From Fimbriimonadaceae bacterium (GTDB taxonomy: Bacteria; Armatimonadota; Fimbriimonadia; Fimbriimonadales; Fimbriimonadaceae), in the NCBI GenBank assembly GCA_022843485.1, contig JALHNM010000002.1:94238-158237 (forward strand): a stretch of 64,000 bases of DNA, read 5' to 3'. The position numbers were made by a program, and so were the translations under genes. The notes under the pieces were generated by a model. It had not been told where the DNA came from and ran no database searches. It saw only the letters and a program-made list of their open reading frames with translations. Below, one piece after another: positions 6,912 through 48,335 of this stretch. How positions within the stretch are numbered: position 1 is the stretch's first letter; each line of letters starts with the position of its first letter.

Positions 6912-7931
6912 TTAGGGGCGGGTCACACTCACCGTGTTGCTGCCCCGCTCGTTCGAGGTCGTCAAAACGACGAAGACCTTGTAGAAAACCCGCGAGCCCG
7001 GGGCGACGAGCCCCTCGTCGGTCAGGAATTGGAGCGCACCGGGCGGGTTATTGTCGATGACGACCGACTCGTCGGCCTTCCAGCGGTCACCAAAGCACGC
7101 ACGCAGCTCGTACTGGTCGAGGTTGGGGTCGGTACTCGCCGTATAGGTCACGCGAGCCTTCCCGAGCGCCACGTCCCATGTCGCGCTGGCGTTCACAGGG
7201 GCCGGGGTGTGGCCGCGAGCGGCCGTGAGCTTCGGCAACGAGGACACGAAGGGGCTGGTCGACGGGAAGCTGGCCAGCACCGCCTGGCGGTACTGCTTAA
7301 GCCGCTGGTAGACGGGGGCAAAAACGGCGTCCCGCTGCTCGCGCGAGAGCTGCGCGACCTGCTCCGCGCTCGCCAAGGCCACGAAAGAGCTCTTCAGCAG
7401 GTTGCTCTCGCCCGTGAAGAGGATGAGCGTGTACGCCCCGGCCAAGAGAAGCGGCGGGGTGAACCCGCTCACCGGCGGGGAGTTCGTGTTCACCGTCGTC
7501 CAGAGGCTGCTCATGTCGTCTAGGGCGTCGCGCCACTTACCGGGGGAGGCGGTAAAGGGCGGCGTCCTGGGGATCGCCCGCTGGTAGCGGGAGCCAGGCA
7601 GCTGGGCGTTGATCGCCGCTCGAAACTGGGCAAAGCGAGGCCGCACGGAGGCACGCCGAACGTCACGCTCGCCCCGAGCCGTCTGCTCGACGTTAAGCCT
7701 AGTCTGCACCTCGGTCACGGCCGCATCGACCGCGGCACGGTCAGTGACGAGGTTGGCCCTAGCATACGCACCGCTGAGCGTCAAAGCCCCAGGCGCAAGG
7801 GCTGTGTTCACGTCCTGCCAGTGCTGCAGGAACTCGTCCATAGTCGGAAGCCACGACGCCACACCAGTGATCGGCATAGTGCGTGCCAGTGTACCACAGT
7901 TAATAGGCGAAGGCCACCTTTTGTGACACAT
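6912..7931 (-). CDS. hypothetical protein
   Basis: 339-aa ORF with no recognised motif; possible alternative starts at internal Met residues (MPITGV, MDEFLQ); lies downstream of the Pnkp ligase ORF after a ~220-bp gap. Confidence 0.45.
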   Translation of the reverse strand: MCHKRWPSPINCGTLARTMPITGVASWLPTMDEFLQHWQDVNTALAPGALTLSGAYARANLVTDRAAVDAAVTEVQTRLNVEQTARGERDVRRASVRPRFAQFRAAINAQLPGSRYQRAIPRTPPFTASPGKWRDALDDMSSLWTTVNTNSPPVSGFTPPLLLAGAYTLILFTGESNLLKSSFVALASAEQVAQLSREQRDAVFAPVYQRLKQYRQAVLASFPSTSPFVSSLPKLTAARGHTPAPVNASATWDVALGKARVTYTASTDPNLDQYELRACFGDRWKADESVVIDNNPPGALQFLTDEGLVAPGSRVFYKVFVVLTTSNERGSNTVSVTRP

Positions 7932-8152: not shown

Positions 8153-9400
8153 CTAGAGCCGCGGGTCGACGGGCTCGCTCTCAAGGGCGAGTACGGCGAA
8201 GGCGCACTCGTGGACCCGTCGCAACGGCTGCCGAGCGACGAACCGCTGGAGCCCTTCGAGCCCGAGCGCGAACTCGCGGAGGGCCAAGGAGCGCTTGGCT
8301 GCGAGCCCCCGTTGGCGGAGGCGGTCCAGGTTGTCCGGTGCAAGGTAGTCCGGGCCGTAGATAATGCGCAAGTACTCGAGTCCGCGGACCTTCAAGGCCG
8401 GTTGCGCCAGCCCCTTGCGCCCTTTGGCGACGAACGACGACGGTTTGACGACCATCCCCTCGCCGCCCGACCCGACCAAGTCCTCCCACCACTCGACCGC
8501 GGCGGCTACGGCGGACTCATCGGCGAGTTCGACCTCGCGCCAGGGCGTTGCGGACAGGAGTTGGCGATCGACGGAGCAGACCGAGGCCAGTTCGTCCATG
8601 TGCTGGGCGTGGGGGAGGACGGCCCAGACCCGTCCCTCCGTCGCCATCACGTGGAACGGGGCCAGCCGGTACCCGGCAAGCCCGTCCACGGGCCAGCAGT
8701 AGCGTCGGTAGGCCTCGACGTACAGGCCGAGGGCGGCGCGCCGGGAGCCCAAGCGGGCGGCGAGGGCATCGACGAGCGGATCGGGCCCCGCCGTCGCCGC
8801 TGCGGCGGAGACGGCGGCCTCGGCGGCGGCCAACGACGCAGCTCCCGCCGCCCCGACGGGGGCGTACTGGGTGCGGAGCAGCTCTTGGGCCTTGGCCGAC
8901 CAGGGCATCAGCTCGCAGTCGATCACTGCCCAGTCCGTGCGCCACGCTTCCCACCGCCCGGACTCACCGATGGCCTTCGCCACTCGACCGATCAGTGCCG
9001 CCTCGAGGTCTAGGTCGGTGAAGAACCGCCGACCGGTGCGGGTGAGGACGATTCCGGTCTCGCCGGTCTCGACTCCGAAGCGCGCGCGGGCCGCTTTGGC
9101 GTCGCGGCAGACGACGACGACGGCCCGCGACCCCATGTGCTTCTCCTCGAGCACGACTCGCTCGACGCCCTCGTCCCGGAAGTAGCTGAACGCCTCCTCT
9201 GGGCGCTCCAGGTAGCCGGGTTCCTTGCTCGTCTGGACGGGTGACATGGTCGGCGGGAGGTAGACCATCCACTTCGGGTTCGCGCCGTAGCGGCTGACGA
9301 CCTCGAGCGCGGCCGAGGAGTTCTGTGCCTGGATCGTCACGCGCGACATGAGGGATGTCTCGACATACCTGCGGCCGAGCACGTCCTCCATGTCGAGCAC
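8153..9400 (-). CDS. pnkp: Pnkp C-terminal RNA-ligase (nucleotidyltransferase) domain, separated from the kinase-phosphatase part by an in-frame stop
   Basis: Contains EEKHMGSR (lysine nucleotidyltransferase motif I-like) and a C-terminal region resembling bacterial Pnkp ligase domains; same reading frame as ORF 9416..10771, separated by TAA at 9416-9418 plus 5 codons. Confidence 0.75.
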   Translation of the reverse strand: MLDMEDVLGRRYVETSLMSRVTIQAQNSSAALEVVSRYGANPKWMVYLPPTMSPVQTSKEPGYLERPEEAFSYFRDEGVERVVLEEKHMGSRAVVVVCRDAKAARARFGVETGETGIVLTRTGRRFFTDLDLEAALIGRVAKAIGESGRWEAWRTDWAVIDCELMPWSAKAQELLRTQYAPVGAAGAASLAAAEAAVSAAAATAGPDPLVDALAARLGSRRAALGLYVEAYRRYCWPVDGLAGYRLAPFHVMATEGRVWAVLPHAQHMDELASVCSVDRQLLSATPWREVELADESAVAAAVEWWEDLVGSGGEGMVVKPSSFVAKGRKGLAQPALKVRGLEYLRIIYGPDYLAPDNLDRLRQRGLAAKRSLALREFALGLEGLQRFVARQPLRRVHECAFAVLALESEPVDPRL

Positions 9401-9415
9401 GTCGTCCGCTTCGTG

Positions 9416-10771
9416 TTAGGCGGAGAGGGTGGCGGCCTGGAGGGGCCGGGCCGGTTCGGCGTAGGTGGCCCGTGCCGGGACGCTGAGGGTCTCGCGCTCC
9501 GGCCAGCGCAGGGCTGTGAGCTTGCCTCCAAAGGCGCAGCCGGTGTCCACGCACAGTGTGTTGTTGAGCCACTGCGGTTCTAGGGTCGGGGTGTGCCCGT
9601 AGACCACGGCCGCCTTGCCTCTGTAGTCGAGCGCCCAGGGGTAGCGGACGGGCAGGCCGAATTCGTCGGACTCGCCGGTCGTTTCGCCGTAGAGGGCGAA
9701 GTCTCGGATCCGCCCCGAGGCCCGTCCTTGGTACCGCTCCTTCATTCCTGCATGCGCGACGACGAGTCTGCCCCCGTCGAAGACCAGGTGTGAGACTAAG
9801 CACCGGAGAAAGGTGCGTAGCCGGCCTTGTTCCTCCCCGGGGAGGGCTTCGACCTGGGCCACGGTCTCGGCCAGCCCGTGGTTGAGGCTGACTTTCTGGC
9901 GGTTCATGTGCTTGAGGAGCTTCTCCTCGTGGTTGCCGGGGACGCAGTAGCCCGCTCCCTGCGCCACGACGCTCATGACGAGGGTGAGGGCGCTGGCGGA
10001 GTGGGGCCCGCGGTCGACGAGGTCGCCGACGAACACGAGTTTGCGGCCTTCGGGGTGGCTCACTCGCCACGACCAGGCGAGTTCTTGCCATGGGCCGTCG
10101 TGCCGGCCGGGCGGCTCGCTGAGTGTGGTGGGTCGGGGCTCGTCGATCCGCTCGACCTCGTAGCCCAGGGCACCGAGGAGTTCGAGGAGCTCGACCAGAC
10201 ACCCGTGCACGTCGCCCACGATGTCGAATGGCCCCCGTTCATGGCTCTTGTCGTGCCAGCCCTTGTCGCGGACGATCTCGACCGAGTCGATTTCCTCGGG
10301 GGTCTTGAGGACTGTCACCGACCGGAACCCCTCTCGATTGAGGCCGCGCAGGCTTGCGCGGAGGTCGCGCGTGTGGTTGCGCACGACGTGCGGCCCGAAG
10401 TCGCGCCCGGGCCGGCCGACGTTGCGCTCTTGGCACACGGCCTCCGGGAGGGCGAAGACGATGGCGACGGCGGGGACGTCGTGCTCCTTGGCGTACTTCA
10501 GGAGCCCGGCCCGTGCGTGCGCTTGGACGTTGGTGGCGTCGACGACGGTCAGACGCCCGCGCCTGAGCCGGACGTCCAGCATCGTGTGGAGGAGTGCGAA
10601 GGCGTCGTTCGTGGCGTCCATCGAGGTTTCGTCGTCCGAGACCGCCGCTCGGCACCAGTCGGACGACAGCACCTCGGTCGGCAGGAAGTGGTGGGCGGCG
10701 AAGGTCGACTTACCGCTGCCGGAGGCGCCGATCAGTACCACGAGGCTCAGGTCGGGGACGTGGACGGTCAT
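9416..10771 (-). CDS. pnkp: Pnkp N-terminal polynucleotide 5'-kinase plus 2',3'-phosphatase (calcineurin-like) domains
   Basis: MTVHVPDLSLVVLIGASGSGKSTFAAHHF (P-loop kinase), then GDVHGC ... GDLVDRGP ... GNHE (metallophosphoesterase motifs). The ~300 codons upstream in the track ORF are an Arg/Pro-rich artefact. Confidence 0.85.
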   Translation of the reverse strand: MTVHVPDLSLVVLIGASGSGKSTFAAHHFLPTEVLSSDWCRAAVSDDETSMDATNDAFALLHTMLDVRLRRGRLTVVDATNVQAHARAGLLKYAKEHDVPAVAIVFALPEAVCQERNVGRPGRDFGPHVVRNHTRDLRASLRGLNREGFRSVTVLKTPEEIDSVEIVRDKGWHDKSHERGPFDIVGDVHGCLVELLELLGALGYEVERIDEPRPTTLSEPPGRHDGPWQELAWSWRVSHPEGRKLVFVGDLVDRGPHSASALTLVMSVVAQGAGYCVPGNHEEKLLKHMNRQKVSLNHGLAETVAQVEALPGEEQGRLRTFLRCLVSHLVFDGGRLVVAHAGMKERYQGRASGRIRDFALYGETTGESDEFGLPVRYPWALDYRGKAAVVYGHTPTLEPQWLNNTLCVDTGCAFGGKLTALRWPERETLSVPARATYAEPARPLQAATLSA

Positions 10772-12132
10772 CGCGTGAACACCGCCATCTGGCTCGGGGG
10801 GCCGTGCTCCTCGTGCTCGGGTCCCACGGGCCGGATTTCGAACGAGTAGCCGTGGGCACCCGCGACCCGGGCGCACCAGGCCTGGAACTCGGCCCGGTCC
10901 CACTCGAACCGGTGGTCGGAGTGTCGCACCGCCCCCGCCTCCATGCCGAAGACCGCGTTGTGCTCCCGGTTCGGCGTGGTGAGGACGACCGTCCGCGGGC
11001 GGGCCGACTCGAAGACGCACCGCTCGAAGGCGACGAGTCGCTCCGGGTCCAGGTGCTCGACGACCTCTACGATCGCCGCCGCGTCGAACCCTTCCAAGCG
11101 CCGGTCGCGATAGACGAGCGACCCATGGATGAGCCGGATCCGCTCGGCCTGGCTCGGTGGGAGCCGGTCGAGTTTGAGCCGCCGCTCGGCGCGGTCCAGC
11201 CAAGCCAGCGACACGTCCATCCCCACGATCTCCTTGAACTGCTTCTCGCGGAGGAGGAGCGTGAGGACTTTGCCCTCGCCGCAGCCAAGGTCGAGGACGC
11301 GGGAGGCTCCGCTGGCCACGAGCGCCTCGGCGGCGGCGGCTAGGCGTTGGTCGTGGAGCCGCTCCTTGGGCTCGGAGGCGGGTTCTTCCGGCTCGGCGTC
11401 GGGGTCTGGCTCGCCGTCCTGGGTGCTCAACCGGGTGAGGGCCTCTCGCGTGAGGTGGGCGGAACGCTCGAGGTAGCCCCGGACGATCGTCGTCTTCGCC
11501 GGGTGGTCGTTGAGCCACCCCTCGCCGGCGCGGAGGAGCTTCTCCACCTCGTTCCCGTCCAGCCAGTAGTGCTTGTCCCGGTCGAGCACGGGGATGAGGA
11601 CGTAGAGGTGGTTGAGCAAGGCCTGGAGCGTGACAGTCGCCCTTAGCCGGACGTCGTAGAGCGAGCTCTGGCCCCACTCCGGGAAGCGGTCGTCCAGGGG
11701 TAGATGCCGTGACTCAACCTCGTAGCCAAGGGGCTCGAAGAGCGAACGGAGCACGGCCTCGCCGCCGCGGCAGGGGACGCAGGGGAGCCCGGCCTCGAGC
11801 GGGATCGGTGTCTGCGCCAGCTCCGGCCGGTCCTTGCTGCGTCCGGCCATGGCGGTCGAGAAGAGGCCCTTGAGGGCGACGCAAAGGTAGGACGAGGCCA
11901 CGTAGGGCCGGTCGTTGACGTACTGGTCGAAGCGTCCTGGCCCTCGGACAAGCCCGACCGCGTCGACCTCGAGGATGAGCGCTGCCGTGCATCGCTCCTC
12001 GGTCCGCTCTGGGAAGACGACGGTCGCCCGGCCGAACGTGAGGTCGGCTTCGTGCGCGCGCCCCGGGTTCTTGTGGAGCAAGTAGCCGAGGTCGGTCGCG
12101 GGGCGATGGGTCGTCGTCAGAGTGAGCAGCAT
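10768..12132 (-). CDS. hen1: bacterial Hen1 RNA 3'-terminal 2'-O-methyltransferase
   Basis: MLLTLTTTHRPATDLGYLLHKNPGRAHEADLTFGRATVVFPE (bacterial Hen1 N-terminus); C-terminal SAM-MTase motif VLDLGCGEGKVLTLLL; stop overlaps the pnkp ATG (ATGA). Confidence 0.85.
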   Translation of the reverse strand: MLLTLTTTHRPATDLGYLLHKNPGRAHEADLTFGRATVVFPERTEERCTAALILEVDAVGLVRGPGRFDQYVNDRPYVASSYLCVALKGLFSTAMAGRSKDRPELAQTPIPLEAGLPCVPCRGGEAVLRSLFEPLGYEVESRHLPLDDRFPEWGQSSLYDVRLRATVTLQALLNHLYVLIPVLDRDKHYWLDGNEVEKLLRAGEGWLNDHPAKTTIVRGYLERSAHLTREALTRLSTQDGEPDPDAEPEEPASEPKERLHDQRLAAAAEALVASGASRVLDLGCGEGKVLTLLLREKQFKEIVGMDVSLAWLDRAERRLKLDRLPPSQAERIRLIHGSLVYRDRRLEGFDAAAIVEVVEHLDPERLVAFERCVFESARPRTVVLTTPNREHNAVFGMEAGAVRHSDHRFEWDRAEFQAWCARVAGAHGYSFEIRPVGPEHEEHGPPSQMAVFTR

Positions 12133-12194: not shown

Positions 12195-13127
12195 ATGGCC
12201 CTTAGCGACCTTCCAAGGGACCACCAGGAAACCCGGTGGATCGCGTGTGCACCGGATCGGCAGGAGGCGGCCTATACTGAGGGGGTGCGCCGTGCCCTCC
12301 TTGCCCTCGCCCTCGCTCCGTTGGCGGCCCTAGCCCAGTTCGCCGTGCAGGAGGTCCCGGACGTCGTCTACACCCAGGCGAGCGGGTTTCCGCAGGCTCT
12401 CGACCTTTATCTGCCCTTTCCGGTGACGAGCACCGCCCGCCCGGCCCTGGTGCTGGTCCATGGCGGCGGGTGGATGTTCGGCGACAAGAGCGATTTCGCC
12501 GACTGGGGCCGGTATTTCGCGGCCCGGGGGTACGTGTGCGCCTCGGTCGATTACCGGTTGACGCCGACCCACATCTGGCCGGCCCAGCTCGACGACGTGC
12601 AGGCCTCGGTGCGCTGGCTTCGCCGCCACGCCGTGGCCCTTTCGCTGTCGCCGGAGCGGATCGGGACGGTCGGGGGCTCGGCGGGCGGGCACCTGGCGCT
12701 GTTTCTGGGGGCTCGCGAGACGCTGAACGACTTCGACCCCGACCTGCGGGGGTATTCGTCGCGGGTCCGGGCGGTGGTCGATATCTATGGGCCGACGGAC
12801 ATCGGCGACCTGACGGAGTTCCGGCGCGACCTGTGGGTCCTGGTGTTCGCGCTGATGGGCCAGCCCTGGTCGCGGCAGTCGCTCGTGTACCGGGCCGCCT
12901 CGCCGATCACCTTCGTCACGCCCGACGACGCCGCGACGCTCGTGTTCCAGGGCGCGCTCGACGACGTCGTGCCGCCGTCCCAAAGCCGTCGGCTGGTCGA
13001 CCGGATGCGGGCCAGCGGTGTGCCGGTGGAGTACTTCGAGTTCGCGGACCAAGGCCACGGCTTCGACCCGCCGACGAACACGTTCGTGATCGAGACCGCG
13101 GCTCGGTTCCTCCAGGGCACGCTCTAG
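12195..13127 (+). CDS. alpha/beta hydrolase (esterase/lipase, BD-FAE / fold-3 family)
   Basis: LVLVHGGGWMFGDKSDF and nucleophile elbow GGSAGGHLALFLG. Confidence 0.8.
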   Translation: MALSDLPRDHQETRWIACAPDRQEAAYTEGVRRALLALALAPLAALAQFAVQEVPDVVYTQASGFPQALDLYLPFPVTSTARPALVLVHGGGWMFGDKSDFADWGRYFAARGYVCASVDYRLTPTHIWPAQLDDVQASVRWLRRHAVALSLSPERIGTVGGSAGGHLALFLGARETLNDFDPDLRGYSSRVRAVVDIYGPTDIGDLTEFRRDLWVLVFALMGQPWSRQSLVYRAASPITFVTPDDAATLVFQGALDDVVPPSQSRRLVDRMRASGVPVEYFEFADQGHGFDPPTNTFVIETAARFLQGTL

Positions 13128-13167: not shown

Positions 13168-14556
13168 TTAGTTGGGTCGAGGGGCGGTTCGCCCGGTGGC
13201 GTCGGCCGTCTTCGGGAAGACGAACTCGAAGTTCCTTCTGTTCCACTCGGAGTCCTCGCCCCGGCCGTCCGCAGCGATCCCGTCTGGCTGACCATTGGAG
13301 ACTCTGACAATGTCCCCATCGACGCGGAGTTGGTACGGGCCGCCCGAGTAGGGGTCCGTAGCTTGGAACCCAGCCTCAGCCAAGGTCTTGGGAAACCGGC
13401 CCTTCGCGTGCTTGAACTCGACGGCCGCCATCAAGCCCCTGAACGAGCCGACCAGGGCCTGATGCCGGAGAAAGGCGTCTCCCATCTGGCCGAACACGGG
13501 CATCAAGAATCGGTTTATCTCGAGGGTGGGGTCTCCTTCCCGCGTGAACACGCCCACCACCCTCTTTAGGTGCGGCGCGAACAGTCGCGGATCTGAGACG
13601 GCTTCCCGATCGGAGAACACCTCGGACCACATCTGGAGGGATCGGGCTCGATACGCCTTTCGCGCCGTGTCTCGGCCGACGCCGAAGGGGAGCACCCGTC
13701 GGCGGTGGCCGGCGAGCTCGTCCGGTTCGGGCGGGTCCTGGTCGAAGGATAGCGAGCCATCCATGATCTCGTCGATCCCAGCCTCGATCACGGCGGTGGA
13801 GAACAGCGTTTCGCTCCGCAAGTACCATGCGAAGTCGAGCGGCGGGGTGGCTTGCTTCGCGGCCAGATCGGCGAGTGATCGGTGGAAGGCGGCGTCCTCC
13901 GGCCGGGTCGCGAGTGCCCACTCCATCTGGCGAAGTAGGGCCAGGTCGCAGACGACCCGAACGAACGCGCCTATGACTACAGGCTCCGATCCGACGAAGC
14001 GGCTCAGGGCCTGAGCGGTTCTGAAGTCTTCGATCGCGGCGGCAGTATCGCCCTCGAGGGCGCCCAACGTCGCCCGGAGCGAGAGTGCCCGAACTAGCTG
14101 CTTGAACGAGCTGAACTCGGGGAAGCGGATCGTCCAAGGCTTCGGGCTTTCCCAGTCTCTGCCGAAGTCGACCCTTGGCCGCTGGGTGGCGCGGGCGGCG
14201 TCCGCCATGGCCGGGGCCAGCTCGGCCAGGATCTCGCGGGCGGGCCCGACGGCGGCCCCGGTCGGGTCCTTGAGGGCCTTGTCGATCTCTTCGGCCCAGC
14301 CGCGCCGGCTCCTGCTCAAGGCCGTCAGCTTGCCGAAGGCCTCTCGAAGCGCCGGGGCGGCGTTCTCCTCCGGCGTCACGGGCGGGTTCGGCTTCAGCGC
14401 CGAGCCGTCGAGGACAAGCCCAAGGCGCTTGGCCTCCGCCTCTGCCGCCGGCAGCTCCCTCGCCGCTTGCTCGAACGAGCGGGCGGTCTCGCTCTGGCAC
14501 CCGACCAGCGCGAGCACCGCCACCCAAACCGCACACGTGACGTCGAACCGCCTCAT
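13168..14556 (-). CDS. hypothetical secreted protein / lipoprotein
   Basis: True start at MRRFDVTCAVWVAVLALVGCQSE (signal peptide with lipobox-like LVGC); the ~216 upstream track codons are artefact; no known domain. Confidence 0.55.
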   Translation of the reverse strand: MRRFDVTCAVWVAVLALVGCQSETARSFEQAARELPAAEAEAKRLGLVLDGSALKPNPPVTPEENAAPALREAFGKLTALSRSRRGWAEEIDKALKDPTGAAVGPAREILAELAPAMADAARATQRPRVDFGRDWESPKPWTIRFPEFSSFKQLVRALSLRATLGALEGDTAAAIEDFRTAQALSRFVGSEPVVIGAFVRVVCDLALLRQMEWALATRPEDAAFHRSLADLAAKQATPPLDFAWYLRSETLFSTAVIEAGIDEIMDGSLSFDQDPPEPDELAGHRRRVLPFGVGRDTARKAYRARSLQMWSEVFSDREAVSDPRLFAPHLKRVVGVFTREGDPTLEINRFLMPVFGQMGDAFLRHQALVGSFRGLMAAVEFKHAKGRFPKTLAEAGFQATDPYSGGPYQLRVDGDIVRVSNGQPDGIAADGRGEDSEWNRRNFEFVFPKTADATGRTAPRPN

Positions 14557-14663
14557 GACAACAGTATAGGCCGAAAAGTTACGCTTTGCAACACTCCTTC
14601 TTCGGCCGAGGCCCGCCAGCGCAGGGTCGCTTCCCGCCAGCCCGCGCCGACGGGGCCAGAGCC

Positions 14664-15752
14664 TCAGAGCGTGCCGCGGAGGGCTTGCTCGCGTTCGATC
14701 GACTCGAAGAGAGCCTTGAAGTTGCCCTTGCCGAAGCTCTTTGCGCCCTTGCGGTGGATGATCTCGTAGAACAGGGTCGGGCGGTCCGTGATCGGCTTGG
14801 TGAAGATCTGGAGGAGGTAGCCCTCGTCGTCCCGGTCGACCAGGATGCCGAGGTCGGCGAGGACGTCGATGTCCTCGTCGATCTTCCCGACCCGATCGGG
14901 GAGCATGTCGTAGTACGTCTTCGGCACGGAGAGGAAGTCCACCCCCCGAGCCCGCAGGCGCGAGACGGTGTAGACGATGTCGTCGGTGCGCATCGCGACG
15001 TGCTGGACGCCCGCGCCGCCGAAGAACTCTAGGTACTCGTCGATCTGCGACTTCTTCTTGCCCTCGGCGGGCTCGTTGATCGGGAACTTGACCCGCCCGT
15101 TGCCGCTCGCCATCACCTTGGACATGAGGGCGGTGTAGTCGGTCGAGATGTCCTTGTCGTCGAAGCTGATGAGGTTGGCGAAGCCGAGCACGTCCTCGTA
15201 CCACTTCACCCAGACGTTCATCTTGCCGAGCTCGACGTTGCCGACGCAGTGGTCGACCTCGATGATCCCGATCCCGTCGCCGGGCTGGTTCTCGGCGCGG
15301 AAGCCGGGGAGGAACGGGCCGTTGTAGGCGTCGCGGTTGAGGAGGGAGTGGACGACGTTGCCGTAGGTGCGGATGGCGGCGTGGCGGACCTTGCCGTGGT
15401 CGTCCTCGAGCGTGCGGGGCTCGACGGCGCCGATCGCGCCGCGGTCCGTCGCGGCCTTGTAGGCCCAGTCCACGTCGTCGACCTCGAAGGCGATGTCCTG
15501 GACGAAGTCGCCGTGCTCGGCGATCAGCGGGGCCATCGGGTGGCCGGGCCGGAGCGGGGCGGTGAAGCAGAGGGTGAGGTCGTTCTGCTTGAGGACGTAG
15601 CTCGCCTCGTCGCGGCTGCCGGTTTCGAGGCCCGAGTAGCCGGAGATCGAGAACCCGAACGTGTGCTGGTAGAAGAAGCTGGACTGCCGGGCGTTGTTGA
15701 CGTAGTGCCGGACGTGGTCGACCCGGCGGATCGGGAAGGTGTCGGTGCTCAT
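14664..15752 (-). CDS. hppD: 4-hydroxyphenylpyruvate dioxygenase
   Basis: Two VOC-fold modules, RRVDHVRHYVNN and HIAFEVDDVD-type motifs, length 362 aa typical of HppD. Confidence 0.8.
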   Translation of the reverse strand: MSTDTFPIRRVDHVRHYVNNARQSSFFYQHTFGFSISGYSGLETGSRDEASYVLKQNDLTLCFTAPLRPGHPMAPLIAEHGDFVQDIAFEVDDVDWAYKAATDRGAIGAVEPRTLEDDHGKVRHAAIRTYGNVVHSLLNRDAYNGPFLPGFRAENQPGDGIGIIEVDHCVGNVELGKMNVWVKWYEDVLGFANLISFDDKDISTDYTALMSKVMASGNGRVKFPINEPAEGKKKSQIDEYLEFFGGAGVQHVAMRTDDIVYTVSRLRARGVDFLSVPKTYYDMLPDRVGKIDEDIDVLADLGILVDRDDEGYLLQIFTKPITDRPTLFYEIIHRKGAKSFGKGNFKALFESIEREQALRGTL

Positions 15753-15986
15753 CGTTGGTTCCTACCTTGCCTTACGTCGCTCGCCCCAATTTCCGACTGA
15801 AACGGAATACGGTCGCTCGGGCAACGAAGAGCGTCCTTGCCATTATATCCCGGCTCGTGCTCCCCTAGGAGCGCGGGACCGGGGAGCGGGTCCACGGATC
15901 CGCGCTCCGGGCGTCTATGATAGGGAAGCCGTGGCCAGCCCTCGCCAACGCCCCACCCGGGGGTTCGTCTGAACGCCCATGCCTCG

Positions 15987-46127: not shown

Positions 46128-46804
46128 TGCGCGAGCGGGGAAGGGCTTTCACACTGATCGAACTCCTGGTGGTGATCGCCATCATCGCTGTGCTCGCAGC
46201 GATCCTGTTCCCCGTGTTCGCGAGCGCGAAGCTGGCCGCTCAGGCCACGTCGTGCGCGTCGAACATCCGCCAGATGGGGGTCTCGTTCACGCTCTACACG
46301 GGCGATACGGACGGCGTCTACCCCCTCGCCGCCTATCCGACCGGGGGCCAAGGGTTCGCGCTCTGGCACGACCTCGTCGATCCGTTCGTCAAGAACAAGG
46401 ACGTGTGGCTCTGCCCCTGTAGCCGGGTCAAGCCTCGGGACGAGAGCGGGGCCCCGACCTCGCACTTCGGCTACAACGTGCGGGGTCTCACGGACATCCG
46501 TCTCGACTTTGCCAACGCCGTCGGCCACCGGGCCGTCTCGGAATCGCAAATCGAACAGCCCAGCGAGACCGTGCTGCTCGTGACCGCCAAGGCGAGCAGG
46601 CTCTCGAGCTTCTGCGGCGACGACGGCAAGCTCCTGCTCTTCCCGAGCGACCCCGACGACGACTGCTGGGGCAGGCCGGACCCGAACGCGCAGGGCAAGG
46701 CCATCGTCCAATGGGCCGACCTTCATACCTCCCGGCGCGCGGCGGGGGGCTTCAGTGTCGGGGCCAACCCAGCCGACCGGTTCTTCGACACCCTCGGAGA
46801 TTGA
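46127..46804 (+). CDS. prepilin-type N-terminal cleavage/methylation domain protein with DUF1559 (H-X9-DG-like)
   Basis: MRERGRAFTLIELLVVIAIIAVLAAILFPVF (class III signal / pilin-like N-terminus); start ATG overlaps the stop of the upstream SBP (TGATG); the 129 upstream track codons are artefact. Confidence 0.75.
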   Translation: MRERGRAFTLIELLVVIAIIAVLAAILFPVFASAKLAAQATSCASNIRQMGVSFTLYTGDTDGVYPLAAYPTGGQGFALWHDLVDPFVKNKDVWLCPCSRVKPRDESGAPTSHFGYNVRGLTDIRLDFANAVGHRAVSESQIEQPSETVLLVTAKASRLSSFCGDDGKLLLFPSDPDDDCWGRPDPNAQGKAIVQWADLHTSRRAAGGFSVGANPADRFFDTLGD

Positions 46805-46877
46805 CCCCGGCAATAGTGCTGGAATCGAAGGAGTCGCTCGTAACCCTTCCAGGCGCTGCCGGTATCCTTGGCCCGCC

Positions 46878-48335
46878 ATGCCCTGTTCTTCATTGCCTCT
46901 AAAGCGGAGTTCCCGTTCGGCTCTCATCGGCTCGCTCCTGCTCCTCTCGCTCACCCTCCCGGTCGTCGGCGCGGCCCAGGGCCCTCCCCCGTGGCTCTGG
47001 AAGGCGAGCGGCTCGGACCCGGCGAACGCGGTCGGTTTCTCGGCGGACGGCACTGCGTTCGCGAAGGGCACGACCGGCTCCGACGTGCTCGTATTCGACT
47101 CGATCGAGGGTTCTCCGAGCCAGGTGCTCTCCGGTCACACGGGACAAGTCTTGGCCATCGCGTTCCCCAACAGCGGCGACGTCGTCGCCACCGGCTCGTT
47201 CGACCGCTCTGTTCGGCTCTGGAACTGGCGGACCGGCGCGCTCATCCGGTCGCTCCCCGGCCACTCCGCCCCGGTGAACGCCATCGCGTTCTCGCCGAAC
47301 GGTAACCTCTTGGCATCGGCTTCCACCGACCGGACGGTCCGCATTTGGCGTGTCGGGGATGGGGCTCTGCTTAACACGTTGACAGGCCACACGGACGCCG
47401 TCAATTCGCTGGCCTGGGGTTCTTCGAACGTCCTCGCGAGCGGCTCGAGCGACCTCTCGATCCGTCTCTGGGACCCGGCCACCGGGATTCTCCTGCGCAC
47501 GCTGACCGGGCACGCGGGTCCCATCAGCTCGCTCGCCTTCAACACCGACCTCTCTCAGCTCGCCTCGGGCTCGTGGGACGCCACGGTCAAGCTGTGGAAC
47601 CCGCAGACCGGCGACCTGTTCCGGACTATCCCGGGCCACACCGACTGGGTTCTCGGGCTTGTCTTCACTGGTGACCGCAGGACGCTCGTCTCGGGTTCGC
47701 TCGACGGCACCATCAGGTTCTGGAACCCGCAGGACGGCACACTGCGCAAGCGCTACGACGAGGAGACCGGTGCCGTGCTCGGCCTCGCCTTCGGTTTCGA
47801 CGACGCCCTCCTCGGCATCGCCGCCGAACAGTCCGGCGTGGCCCGGAACCCGTTCGGCGTACCGGACGTGCAGTTCCCGATCGCGTTCCAGGCCCTGCGC
47901 GGCCGAGTCGATCGTGGCGATCTCACGAGCCTGCGAGGCGATGACTCGAACCCGCTCCGCGTCTGCCGGTTCATCGTCCCGAACGACCCGCTGCGGGTCG
48001 TCGAGCTCCGGTACACGCTGCGCACGATCACGCCGAAGCCCGGCGCCCTCGTCGTGGCCGTCCGCTCGCGGGCCTCGGTCGGTGGGTTGCTCCAGCAGAC
48101 GCTCGAGCTGTTCGACTGGGCCGAGAACCGCTTCGACCCGACGGACGTGCTCCAGGGGAACCTCAACACGACCTTCACGAGCCGGGTCTTGACGGCCACG
48201 GGCGATCTGACCCGTTACGTCGACTCCAACCGGCGCATCCGGGTCCAGCAGACCATGCGCATCGTCGGCCCCATCCCGAACCCGAACCCGTGCCTCGAGA
48301 CGACGCTCGTCCGAGCCACGGTCACCCCGTCCTAA
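46878..48335 (+). CDS. secreted WD40-repeat protein with shared C-terminal domain
   Basis: Signal peptide ...LIGSLLLLSLTLPVVGAAQG; seven WD repeats (GHTGQVLAIAF ... SFDRSVRLWN etc.); last ~140 aa (47913..48332) homologous to the C-termini of ORFs 3228, 25356 and 36769. Confidence 0.75.
   Translation: MPCSSLPLKRSSRSALIGSLLLLSLTLPVVGAAQGPPPWLWKASGSDPANAVGFSADGTAFAKGTTGSDVLVFDSIEGSPSQVLSGHTGQVLAIAFPNSGDVVATGSFDRSVRLWNWRTGALIRSLPGHSAPVNAIAFSPNGNLLASASTDRTVRIWRVGDGALLNTLTGHTDAVNSLAWGSSNVLASGSSDLSIRLWDPATGILLRTLTGHAGPISSLAFNTDLSQLASGSWDATVKLWNPQTGDLFRTIPGHTDWVLGLVFTGDRRTLVSGSLDGTIRFWNPQDGTLRKRYDEETGAVLGLAFGFDDALLGIAAEQSGVARNPFGVPDVQFPIAFQALRGRVDRGDLTSLRGDDSNPLRVCRFIVPNDPLRVVELRYTLRTITPKPGALVVAVRSRASVGGLLQQTLELFDWAENRFDPTDVLQGNLNTTFTSRVLTATGDLTRYVDSNRRIRVQQTMRIVGPIPNPNPCLETTLVRATVTPS

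Follow-up and report, generated by a model that had tools for sequence, protein, structure and literature searches.

Judged from its sequence, a locus on the minus strand of the 64-kb stretch of Fimbriimonadaceae DNA analyzed here (64,000 nt of contig JALHNM010000002.1; hereafter the window) is a canonical Hen1-Pnkp RNA-repair operon that carries one premature stop codon in the gene for Pnkp, an enzyme with kinase, phosphatase and ligase domains. The stop, an in-frame TAA, replaces the codon of a conserved glutamine (Gln-452) between the phosphatase and the ligase. The reading we favor, and to which we give about an even chance, is that it is a real and very recent C-to-T nonsense change (CAA to TAA), representing an incipient inactivation or a strain-specific loss-of-function allele rather than an evolved two-gene architecture.

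The whole Pnkp frame (10771..8153, minus strand) is interrupted by this TAA alone, the parts on either side of it lying in the same frame. It consists of 451 sense codons from the ATG at 10771, the TAA (9416..9418), five further sense codons reading H-E-A-D-D (9401..9415) up to the first possible restart codon, and 415 codons beginning with the GTG at 9400. The upstream part (9419..10771) encodes 451 aa comprising a P-loop 5'-OH polynucleotide kinase and a binuclear metallophosphoesterase (2',3' phosphatase), and the downstream part (8153..9400, stop at 8155..8153) encodes a complete ligase (adenylyltransferase) domain, of 415 aa if begun at GTG 9400, 412 aa if begun at ATG 9391 (as in database protein P0243) and 409 aa if begun at GTG 9382. 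Directly upstream and on the same strand lies hen1 (10768..12132), encoding a 454-aa 3'-terminal RNA ribose 2'-O-methyltransferase whose N-terminal module serves to bind the Pnkp ligase; the stop codon of hen1 and the Pnkp start share 4 nt (ATGA). An initial annotation of this DNA had placed the two Pnkp open reading frames (ORFs) correctly to the base, including their common frame.

That annotation had also identified the gene, as a Pnkp split at the phosphatase/ligase boundary beside Hen1, and the profile matches agree. Against the NCBIfam model of bacterial Pnkp (TIGR04075, bacter_Pnkp) the upstream part matches positions 1-428 of 851 (660 bits) and the downstream part positions 440-851 (602 bits); since the two parts are collinear on one family profile, a chance arrangement is ruled out, and neither half alone reaches the whole-protein cut-off of 750 bits. 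The kinase domain is recognized by Pfam (AAA_33, positions 1-141/143, 104.6 bits), by its GASGSGKST motif and by its match to PDB 4GP6 (E = 6.3e-54), the phosphatase by Metallophos (2-189/191), the motifs GDVHG, GDLVDRG and GNHE, and PDB 4J6O (E = 1.5e-91), and the ligase by PNKP_ligase (1-377/377, 556 bits), the motifs EEKHMGSRA and GGEGMVVKP, and PDB 4DRF (E = 8.5e-149). The catalytic motifs GSGKS, GDVHG, GDLVDRG, GNHE, KHMGS and EGMVVKP are all intact. Hen1 is full length (TIGR04074, positions 1-462/462, 654 bits; Pfam Hen1_L, 1-241/242, plus methyltransferase domains), and an adjacent, co-oriented hen1 is likewise found at related loci L043, L044 and L049-L052. By its domains and gene order the locus thus belongs to the canonical Pnkp-Hen1 system in all respects except that the in-frame TAA (9418..9416) prevents a single polypeptide of ~850-870 aa, the form of bacterial Pnkp.

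We compared the locus with its relatives at several distances. The best 120 database matches to the rejoined protein are 769-892 aa long, 119 of them 845-892 aa, the exception being the truncated protein P0002 (769 aa). Identity to the two closest relatives spans 74-82%. P0241 (871 aa, found on six JGI contigs), together with its truncated form P0002, shares 80-86% of residues with the window protein in each half, and the next, P0001, is 74% identical, 871 aa long and continuous; both P0241 and P0001 are encoded in Hen1-Pnkp operons with the same 4-nt overlap. The codon at the position of the window TAA is CAG in L043 and L049 (encoding P0002 and P0241) and CAA in L044 (P0001); CAA, from which one transition leads to TAA and which we infer to be the ancestral codon, makes up 17% of the glutamine codons in the window. 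Gln stands at the stop position in 120/120 full-length homologues. A scan of species-representative genomes, a set without the window genome in which no relative exceeds 66% identity, found the junction uninterrupted in 38/38 loci with both halves in one frame, and two further loci (L038 and L039) split by frameshifts. A metagenome scan, dominated by the universal peptide PWSAKAQE and with none of the matches listed above 65% identity, served as a survey of the junction: it was continuous in 69/73 of the loci listed, and 71/73 have Gln at the stop position (CAG in 41, CAA in 30). The best named matches to the ligase half are from Gemmatimonadota and Longimicrobiales metagenome-assembled genomes (MAGs), at 62% identity.

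In a collection of 15 billion proteins, the upstream half is identical to P0121 (451 aa) and the ligase half 100% identical to P0243 (412 aa, called from ATG 9391), both single-member clusters from one NCBI contig of 445,359 bp. Among the sequences compared, the stop is specific to this one assembly. That TAA falls on a near-universal Gln codon and that the orthologues are continuous speak against a conserved natural split. The comparison with orthologous loci that the initial annotation had proposed thus returned a continuous Pnkp of ~860 aa in which the break is not conserved, and of the three readings offered there, the evidence gives no support to the first, an evolved architecture in which Pnkp is naturally two polypeptides (continuous orthologues of 871 aa, a conserved Gln), while a recent inactivation and a sequence error both stay in play and are weighed below.

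One relative carries a stop of its own: in L043 (8308-8310), which encodes P0002, an in-frame TAG that lies 22 nt from the end of the contig replaces the Glu codon of the ligase motif GG-E-GMVVKP, and six other contigs of the 90% cluster of P0002 encode the intact 871-aa P0241. This TAG probably reflects variation between strains or an error at the contig end.

The break falls in the linker between the two domains, as had been proposed at the outset. The crystallized phosphatase construct (4J6O) can be aligned up to aa 441 of the window protein, residue 2 of chain A of 4DRF/4E6N (the Pnkp-C construct solved with Hen1-N) aligns to the Val of GTG 9400, and in the AlphaFold model of P0001, the closest intact full-length homologue, the predicted local distance difference test score (pLDDT) is below 50 at residues 446-457, a segment that includes Gln-452, the equivalent of the window stop. 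By its conservation across homologues, the mutated codon is nonetheless not a neutral linker codon. It belongs to a near-invariant motif, LSxQ[HQ]xxDDVLD, which also takes in the five codons after the stop and which lies inside the supposedly flexible phosphatase-ligase linker; its Gln and the residues just before DDVLD are outside every crystallized construct, and most of the motif is in the segment with pLDDT below 50. The same spot is occupied differently in a Planctomycetota MAG, where L001 (5001-7991, JAEZED010000037.1) encodes an uninterrupted Pnkp of 997 aa whose linker contains a NUDIX domain (PF00293, aa 446-561, Nudix box GGGIDEGETPEQALIREGMEELG), directly upstream of SAQQxxDDVLD; we know of no description of such a four-domain kinase-phosphatase-Nudix-ligase architecture.

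Apart from the stop, the gene shows no sign of decay. No frameshift and no second stop was found in either Pnkp half, in keeping with the earlier claim that both halves are otherwise intact. The ratio of non-synonymous to synonymous substitution (dN/dS) relative to P0241 is 0.108 in the upstream half and 0.132 in the downstream half. A relative-rate test with P0001 as outgroup counted 24 amino-acid changes unique to the window and 20 unique to the relative in the upstream half, and 25 and 18 in the downstream half, neither difference being significant. Over the 365 columns conserved to 95% or more, the window protein deviates 12 times in the upstream and 15 times in the downstream half, and intact relatives deviate 12/15 and 10/16 times, so that these counts are typical of the clade. 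The gene thus has the disabling lesion of a pseudogene, a nonsense codon at a conserved Gln, with neither relaxed constraint nor secondary lesions. Two explanations fit these results, a very young stop or selection that still acts on both halves, and because of the 25/18 ratio we estimate that the downstream half can have been neutral for roughly a quarter, at most, of the branch that began at its divergence from P0241, the best estimate being near zero. If this is a pseudogene, it is a very young one.

Nor has the surrounding sequence acquired new signals for translation. Intact relatives, too, have GTG 9400 and ATG 9391, as ordinary codons for Val and Met, and pairing of the 18 nt upstream of them with the anti-Shine-Dalgarno sequence is no stronger than expected (-3.2 kcal/mol, against a median of -3.0 for random internal ATG and GTG codons). 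The initial annotation had seen no obvious Shine-Dalgarno element before the second half; this holds for these two codons and not for GTG 9382, which is preceded by GGAGG (9385..9389, minus strand; -8.7 kcal/mol). This GGAGG arises from the codons ATG-GAG-GAC, where relatives have GTG-GAC or GAA-GAT. It ends 2 nt upstream of the GTG, a spacing shorter than good initiation needs, and is probably too close to it to make a good ribosome-binding site. A new start with a ribosome-binding site absent from the fused relatives, as an evolved fission would have, was thus not found, and neither was a break conserved in orthologues. The RNA around the stop is not predicted to fold unusually (z = -1.16), the operon contains no internal site resembling a promoter or terminator, and no suppressor tRNA was detected in the window, whose sole two tRNAs are tRNA-Gln(CTG) and tRNA-Leu(TAG).

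From the presence of the stop we infer the following course of events. Ribosomes would terminate at the TAA and release a 451-aa kinase-phosphatase equal to CthPnkp(1-425), a fragment that is active in end healing, as kinase and phosphatase, in vitro (PMC3675462). The sole source of ligase would be reinitiation after termination, at GTG 9400, ATG 9391 or GTG 9382, 15-33 nt downstream of the stop. Bacterial reinitiation works within ~40 nt and depends strongly on a Shine-Dalgarno-like sequence (PMC5972666). The locus resembles the nonsense-mutation restart fragments described there in having an in-frame GTG, ATG and GTG shortly after a premature stop, and differs from them in lacking a properly spaced Shine-Dalgarno-like element, for which a low efficiency is predicted. 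Reinitiation would thus be inefficient and little ligase is expected, because no restart codon has such an element at the proper distance. Any ligase fragment would contain all of the construct that forms a sealing-competent heterodimer with Hen1-N, and would have lost its covalent link, via the phosphatase, to the kinase dimer, which organizes the (Pnkp)2(Hen1)2 tetramer (PMC3675462; PMC4411300). With little ligase and the tether lost, Hen1-dependent sealing, and hence complete repair, would be lost or strongly reduced, leaving a pseudogene at its outset or a null or hypomorphic allele specific to the strain.

Some of the evidence weighs against this favored reading. The databases hold only one assembly of the window organism. 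That no second lesion is present would be expected just as well if both halves had remained under selection. The position of the stop is, moreover, suspiciously neat: of the 255 possible single-base changes to a stop codon in Pnkp, only 3 (1.2%) lie within the 15 codons that separate the crystallized domain constructs, as do 2 (3.0%) of the 67 stop-creating transitions. A chance inactivation would seldom hit this gap and a tolerated split would be expected in it, in a test that is post hoc and made on one case picked for its neat appearance.

A sequencing, assembly or consensus error, by which the organism would have CAA or CAG at this position and an intact 872-aa Pnkp, the T being a miscall or a minority variant, is in our estimate possible but on the unlikely side. 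The TAA is one base away from the ancestral codon, it is surrounded by no signs of decay or adaptation, the allele comes from a single contig of a single assembly, and a comparable one-off stop occurs in the relative P0002 (the TAG of L043), for which six other contigs are intact. Against an error, the remainder of the window looks clean. We found Pnkp to be the only interrupted gene in the 64 kb, neighboring ORFs that share a frame being separate genes, and domains are covered in full in the window genes for IF-2, CN-hydrolase, BCCP, acyl-CoA dehydrogenase and an SPFH protein; this makes a lone substitution error less likely. TAA is the normal terminator of rplJ, rplL and other window genes, which, together with the intact state of the genes checked, argues against both a noisy assembly and a reassigned codon, and we rejected a reassignment of TAA on this ground. 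Substitution errors in a finished consensus are also generally much rarer than real nonsense alleles, which we count against an error here.

The split Pnkp genes of other assemblies bear on the same point. A search for split lineages, based on short database proteins on long contigs, returned several candidate precedents. Those at L045, L075 and L133-L135 were rejected as precedents for an in-frame split: they are frameshifts, often several per locus, in long-read metagenome assemblies. Separate kinase-phosphatase and ligase ORFs are called there as well, in L045 with the ligase called from the same conserved Val codon (the GTG of DDVLD). They differ from the window in that none of the frameshift-split or truncated loci has an in-frame stop at the Gln codon. 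Error-prone long-read assemblies thus split Pnkp by frameshifts, usually several, and not by one clean substitution of the kind seen in the window, a further point against an error. L046-L048 were rejected since the ligase has gone altogether, as a real deletion that shows reduced architectures to occur naturally: L046 and L047 (two assemblies) encode Hen1 and a 435-aa kinase-phosphatase with no ligase gene downstream, and L048 a lone 446-aa kinase-phosphatase without Hen1. L055, also rejected, is a stand-alone Pnkp-type ligase with no Pnkp-N or Hen1 within 3 kb upstream. Additional genes lie inside two of the frameshifted loci: in L133 (514-2147), two RlaP-family (PF10127) nucleotidyltransferase genes stand between hen1 and the Pnkp pieces, and in L045 (2189-3820), a 543-aa ORF without a Pfam match stands between hen1 and pnkp.

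We consider it unlikely that the stop is real and marks a tolerated or selected gene fission, in which the upstream fragment would be made by termination, the ligase by termination-reinitiation, and RNA repaired together with Hen1 as a non-covalent three-protein system. The break does fall exactly between self-sufficient fragments, the upstream one corresponding to CthPnkp(1-425) and the downstream one, from GTG 9400, to the Pnkp-C crystallized with Hen1-N (PMC3675462), in a gap that only 1.2-3% of nonsense paths reach. All motifs are intact and constraint is not relaxed. Three in-frame start codons lie no more than 33 nt from the stop, one of them beside the GGAGG, a distance within post-termination scanning (~40 nt; PMC5972666). 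A break in the linker is also the type of split with the best prospect of being tolerated. The linker is able to accommodate large changes, such as the whole NUDIX domain of L001, and a natural system with a separate ligase, Pnkp1-Rnl-Hen1, exists (PMC4411300). Against a fission, the split is conserved in no relative, and the Gln that was mutated is kept in nearly every one of them and so is probably functional. No restart codon has a properly spaced Shine-Dalgarno sequence, and the surroundings of the site are unchanged relative to intact relatives. In Pnkp it is the phosphatase domain that connects the ligase to the kinase dimer, with no known non-covalent contact to stand in for this tether (PMC4411300), and every other split Pnkp that we inspected is a frameshift in a long-read assembly. 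The more specific proposal that the TAA is real and tolerated, that the 451-aa kinase-phosphatase and a restarted ligase of ~45 kDa are both made and repair RNA with Hen1, and that this is the first step of a gene fission, appears to us improbable.

Programmed or suppressor-mediated read-through of the UAA, with Gln reinserted by a near-cognate tRNA-Gln to restore full-length Pnkp, is very improbable: the stop does replace a Gln, to which the product could return as wild type, and tRNA-Gln(UUG) is near-cognate to UAA, but TAA ends ordinary window genes including rplJ and rplL, neither a suppressor tRNA nor an unusual RNA structure accompanies it in the window, the relatives compared have no stop at the Gln position, so that neither a conserved stop, a recoding signal nor a dedicated tRNA was found within the window and these relatives, and we know of no UAA recoding system described in bacteria.

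Among known RNA-repair systems, the locus most resembles Pnkp-Hen1 of the Clostridium thermocellum and Anabaena variabilis type. It shares with it the order of hen1 followed by Pnkp, co-oriented and overlapping, all domains and motifs, and the N-terminal ligase-binding module of Hen1; its pieces are 55-62% identical to canonical single-chain Pnkp. It differs from that type in that its Pnkp is not one polypeptide, a TAA standing in place of the conserved Gln. The heterohexameric Pnkp1-Rnl-Hen1 of Capnocytophaga gingivalis (PDB 4XRP, 4XRU) has a separate ligase polypeptide that requires Hen1 (PMC4411300), as the window system would if both fragments were made. Pnkp1, however, resembles T4 Pnkp and its phosphatase belongs to another superfamily (PMC4411300), whereas the window phosphatase is a calcineurin-like metallophosphoesterase. 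Rnl is only ~20% identical to the Pnkp ligase (PMC4411300), and the downstream half of the window gene matches it (4XRP_B) at E = 1.6e-9 over ~80 residues, compared with 8.5e-149 for Pnkp-C. In addition, hen1 is unlinked from the rnl-pnkp1 operon in that system (PMC4411300) and adjacent in the window. On the grounds of the phosphatase superfamily, the weak Rnl match and the linked hen1, membership in Pnkp1-Rnl-Hen1 was rejected. The initial annotation had expected a free ligase subunit to be mechanistically informative. Its novelty would be limited, because a Hen1-activated free ligase subunit is already known from Pnkp1-Rnl-Hen1 (PMC4411300), and the isolated Pnkp fragments have been studied in vitro (PMC3675462).

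The neighborhood of the operon is partly syntenic with that of its relatives, a glyoxalase gene lying upstream of hen1 both in the window and in L050. In L050 and L052 this gene is directly upstream of hen1, and in the window a BD-FAE / alpha-beta-hydrolase esterase gene (12195-13127, plus strand) lies between the two, as a local insertion or rearrangement beside the operon. The glyoxalase ORF (14664-15761) is overlapped by a 678-aa ORF (13168-15204, minus strand) that may not be a real gene. This ORF and one of 339 aa (6912-7931, minus strand) flank the operon region as two long ORFs without a Pfam match. Elsewhere in the window, a 583-aa protein (46584-48335, plus strand) contains a strong WD40 beta-propeller match (Beta-prop_WDR3_1st, 316 bits) and ends in TAA, and PEP-CTERM proteins are present both in the window and in the loci of relatives.

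For annotation, both ORFs should come under a single label, that of an interrupted Pnkp gene, rather than being named as two enzymes. As it stands the finding matters little, being one more Hen1-Pnkp operon in a high-GC bacterium with a single nonsense codon, and its by-products, the linker motif LSxQ[HQ]xxDDVLD and the NUDIX-containing Pnkp of L001, may be more useful. If the split were real and functional, the locus would be a natural experiment on whether RNA repair in vivo needs the covalent tether between the ligase-Hen1 unit and the kinase-phosphatase dimer, and it would offer a snapshot of how a three-component system like the independently evolved Pnkp1-Rnl-Hen1 could arise.

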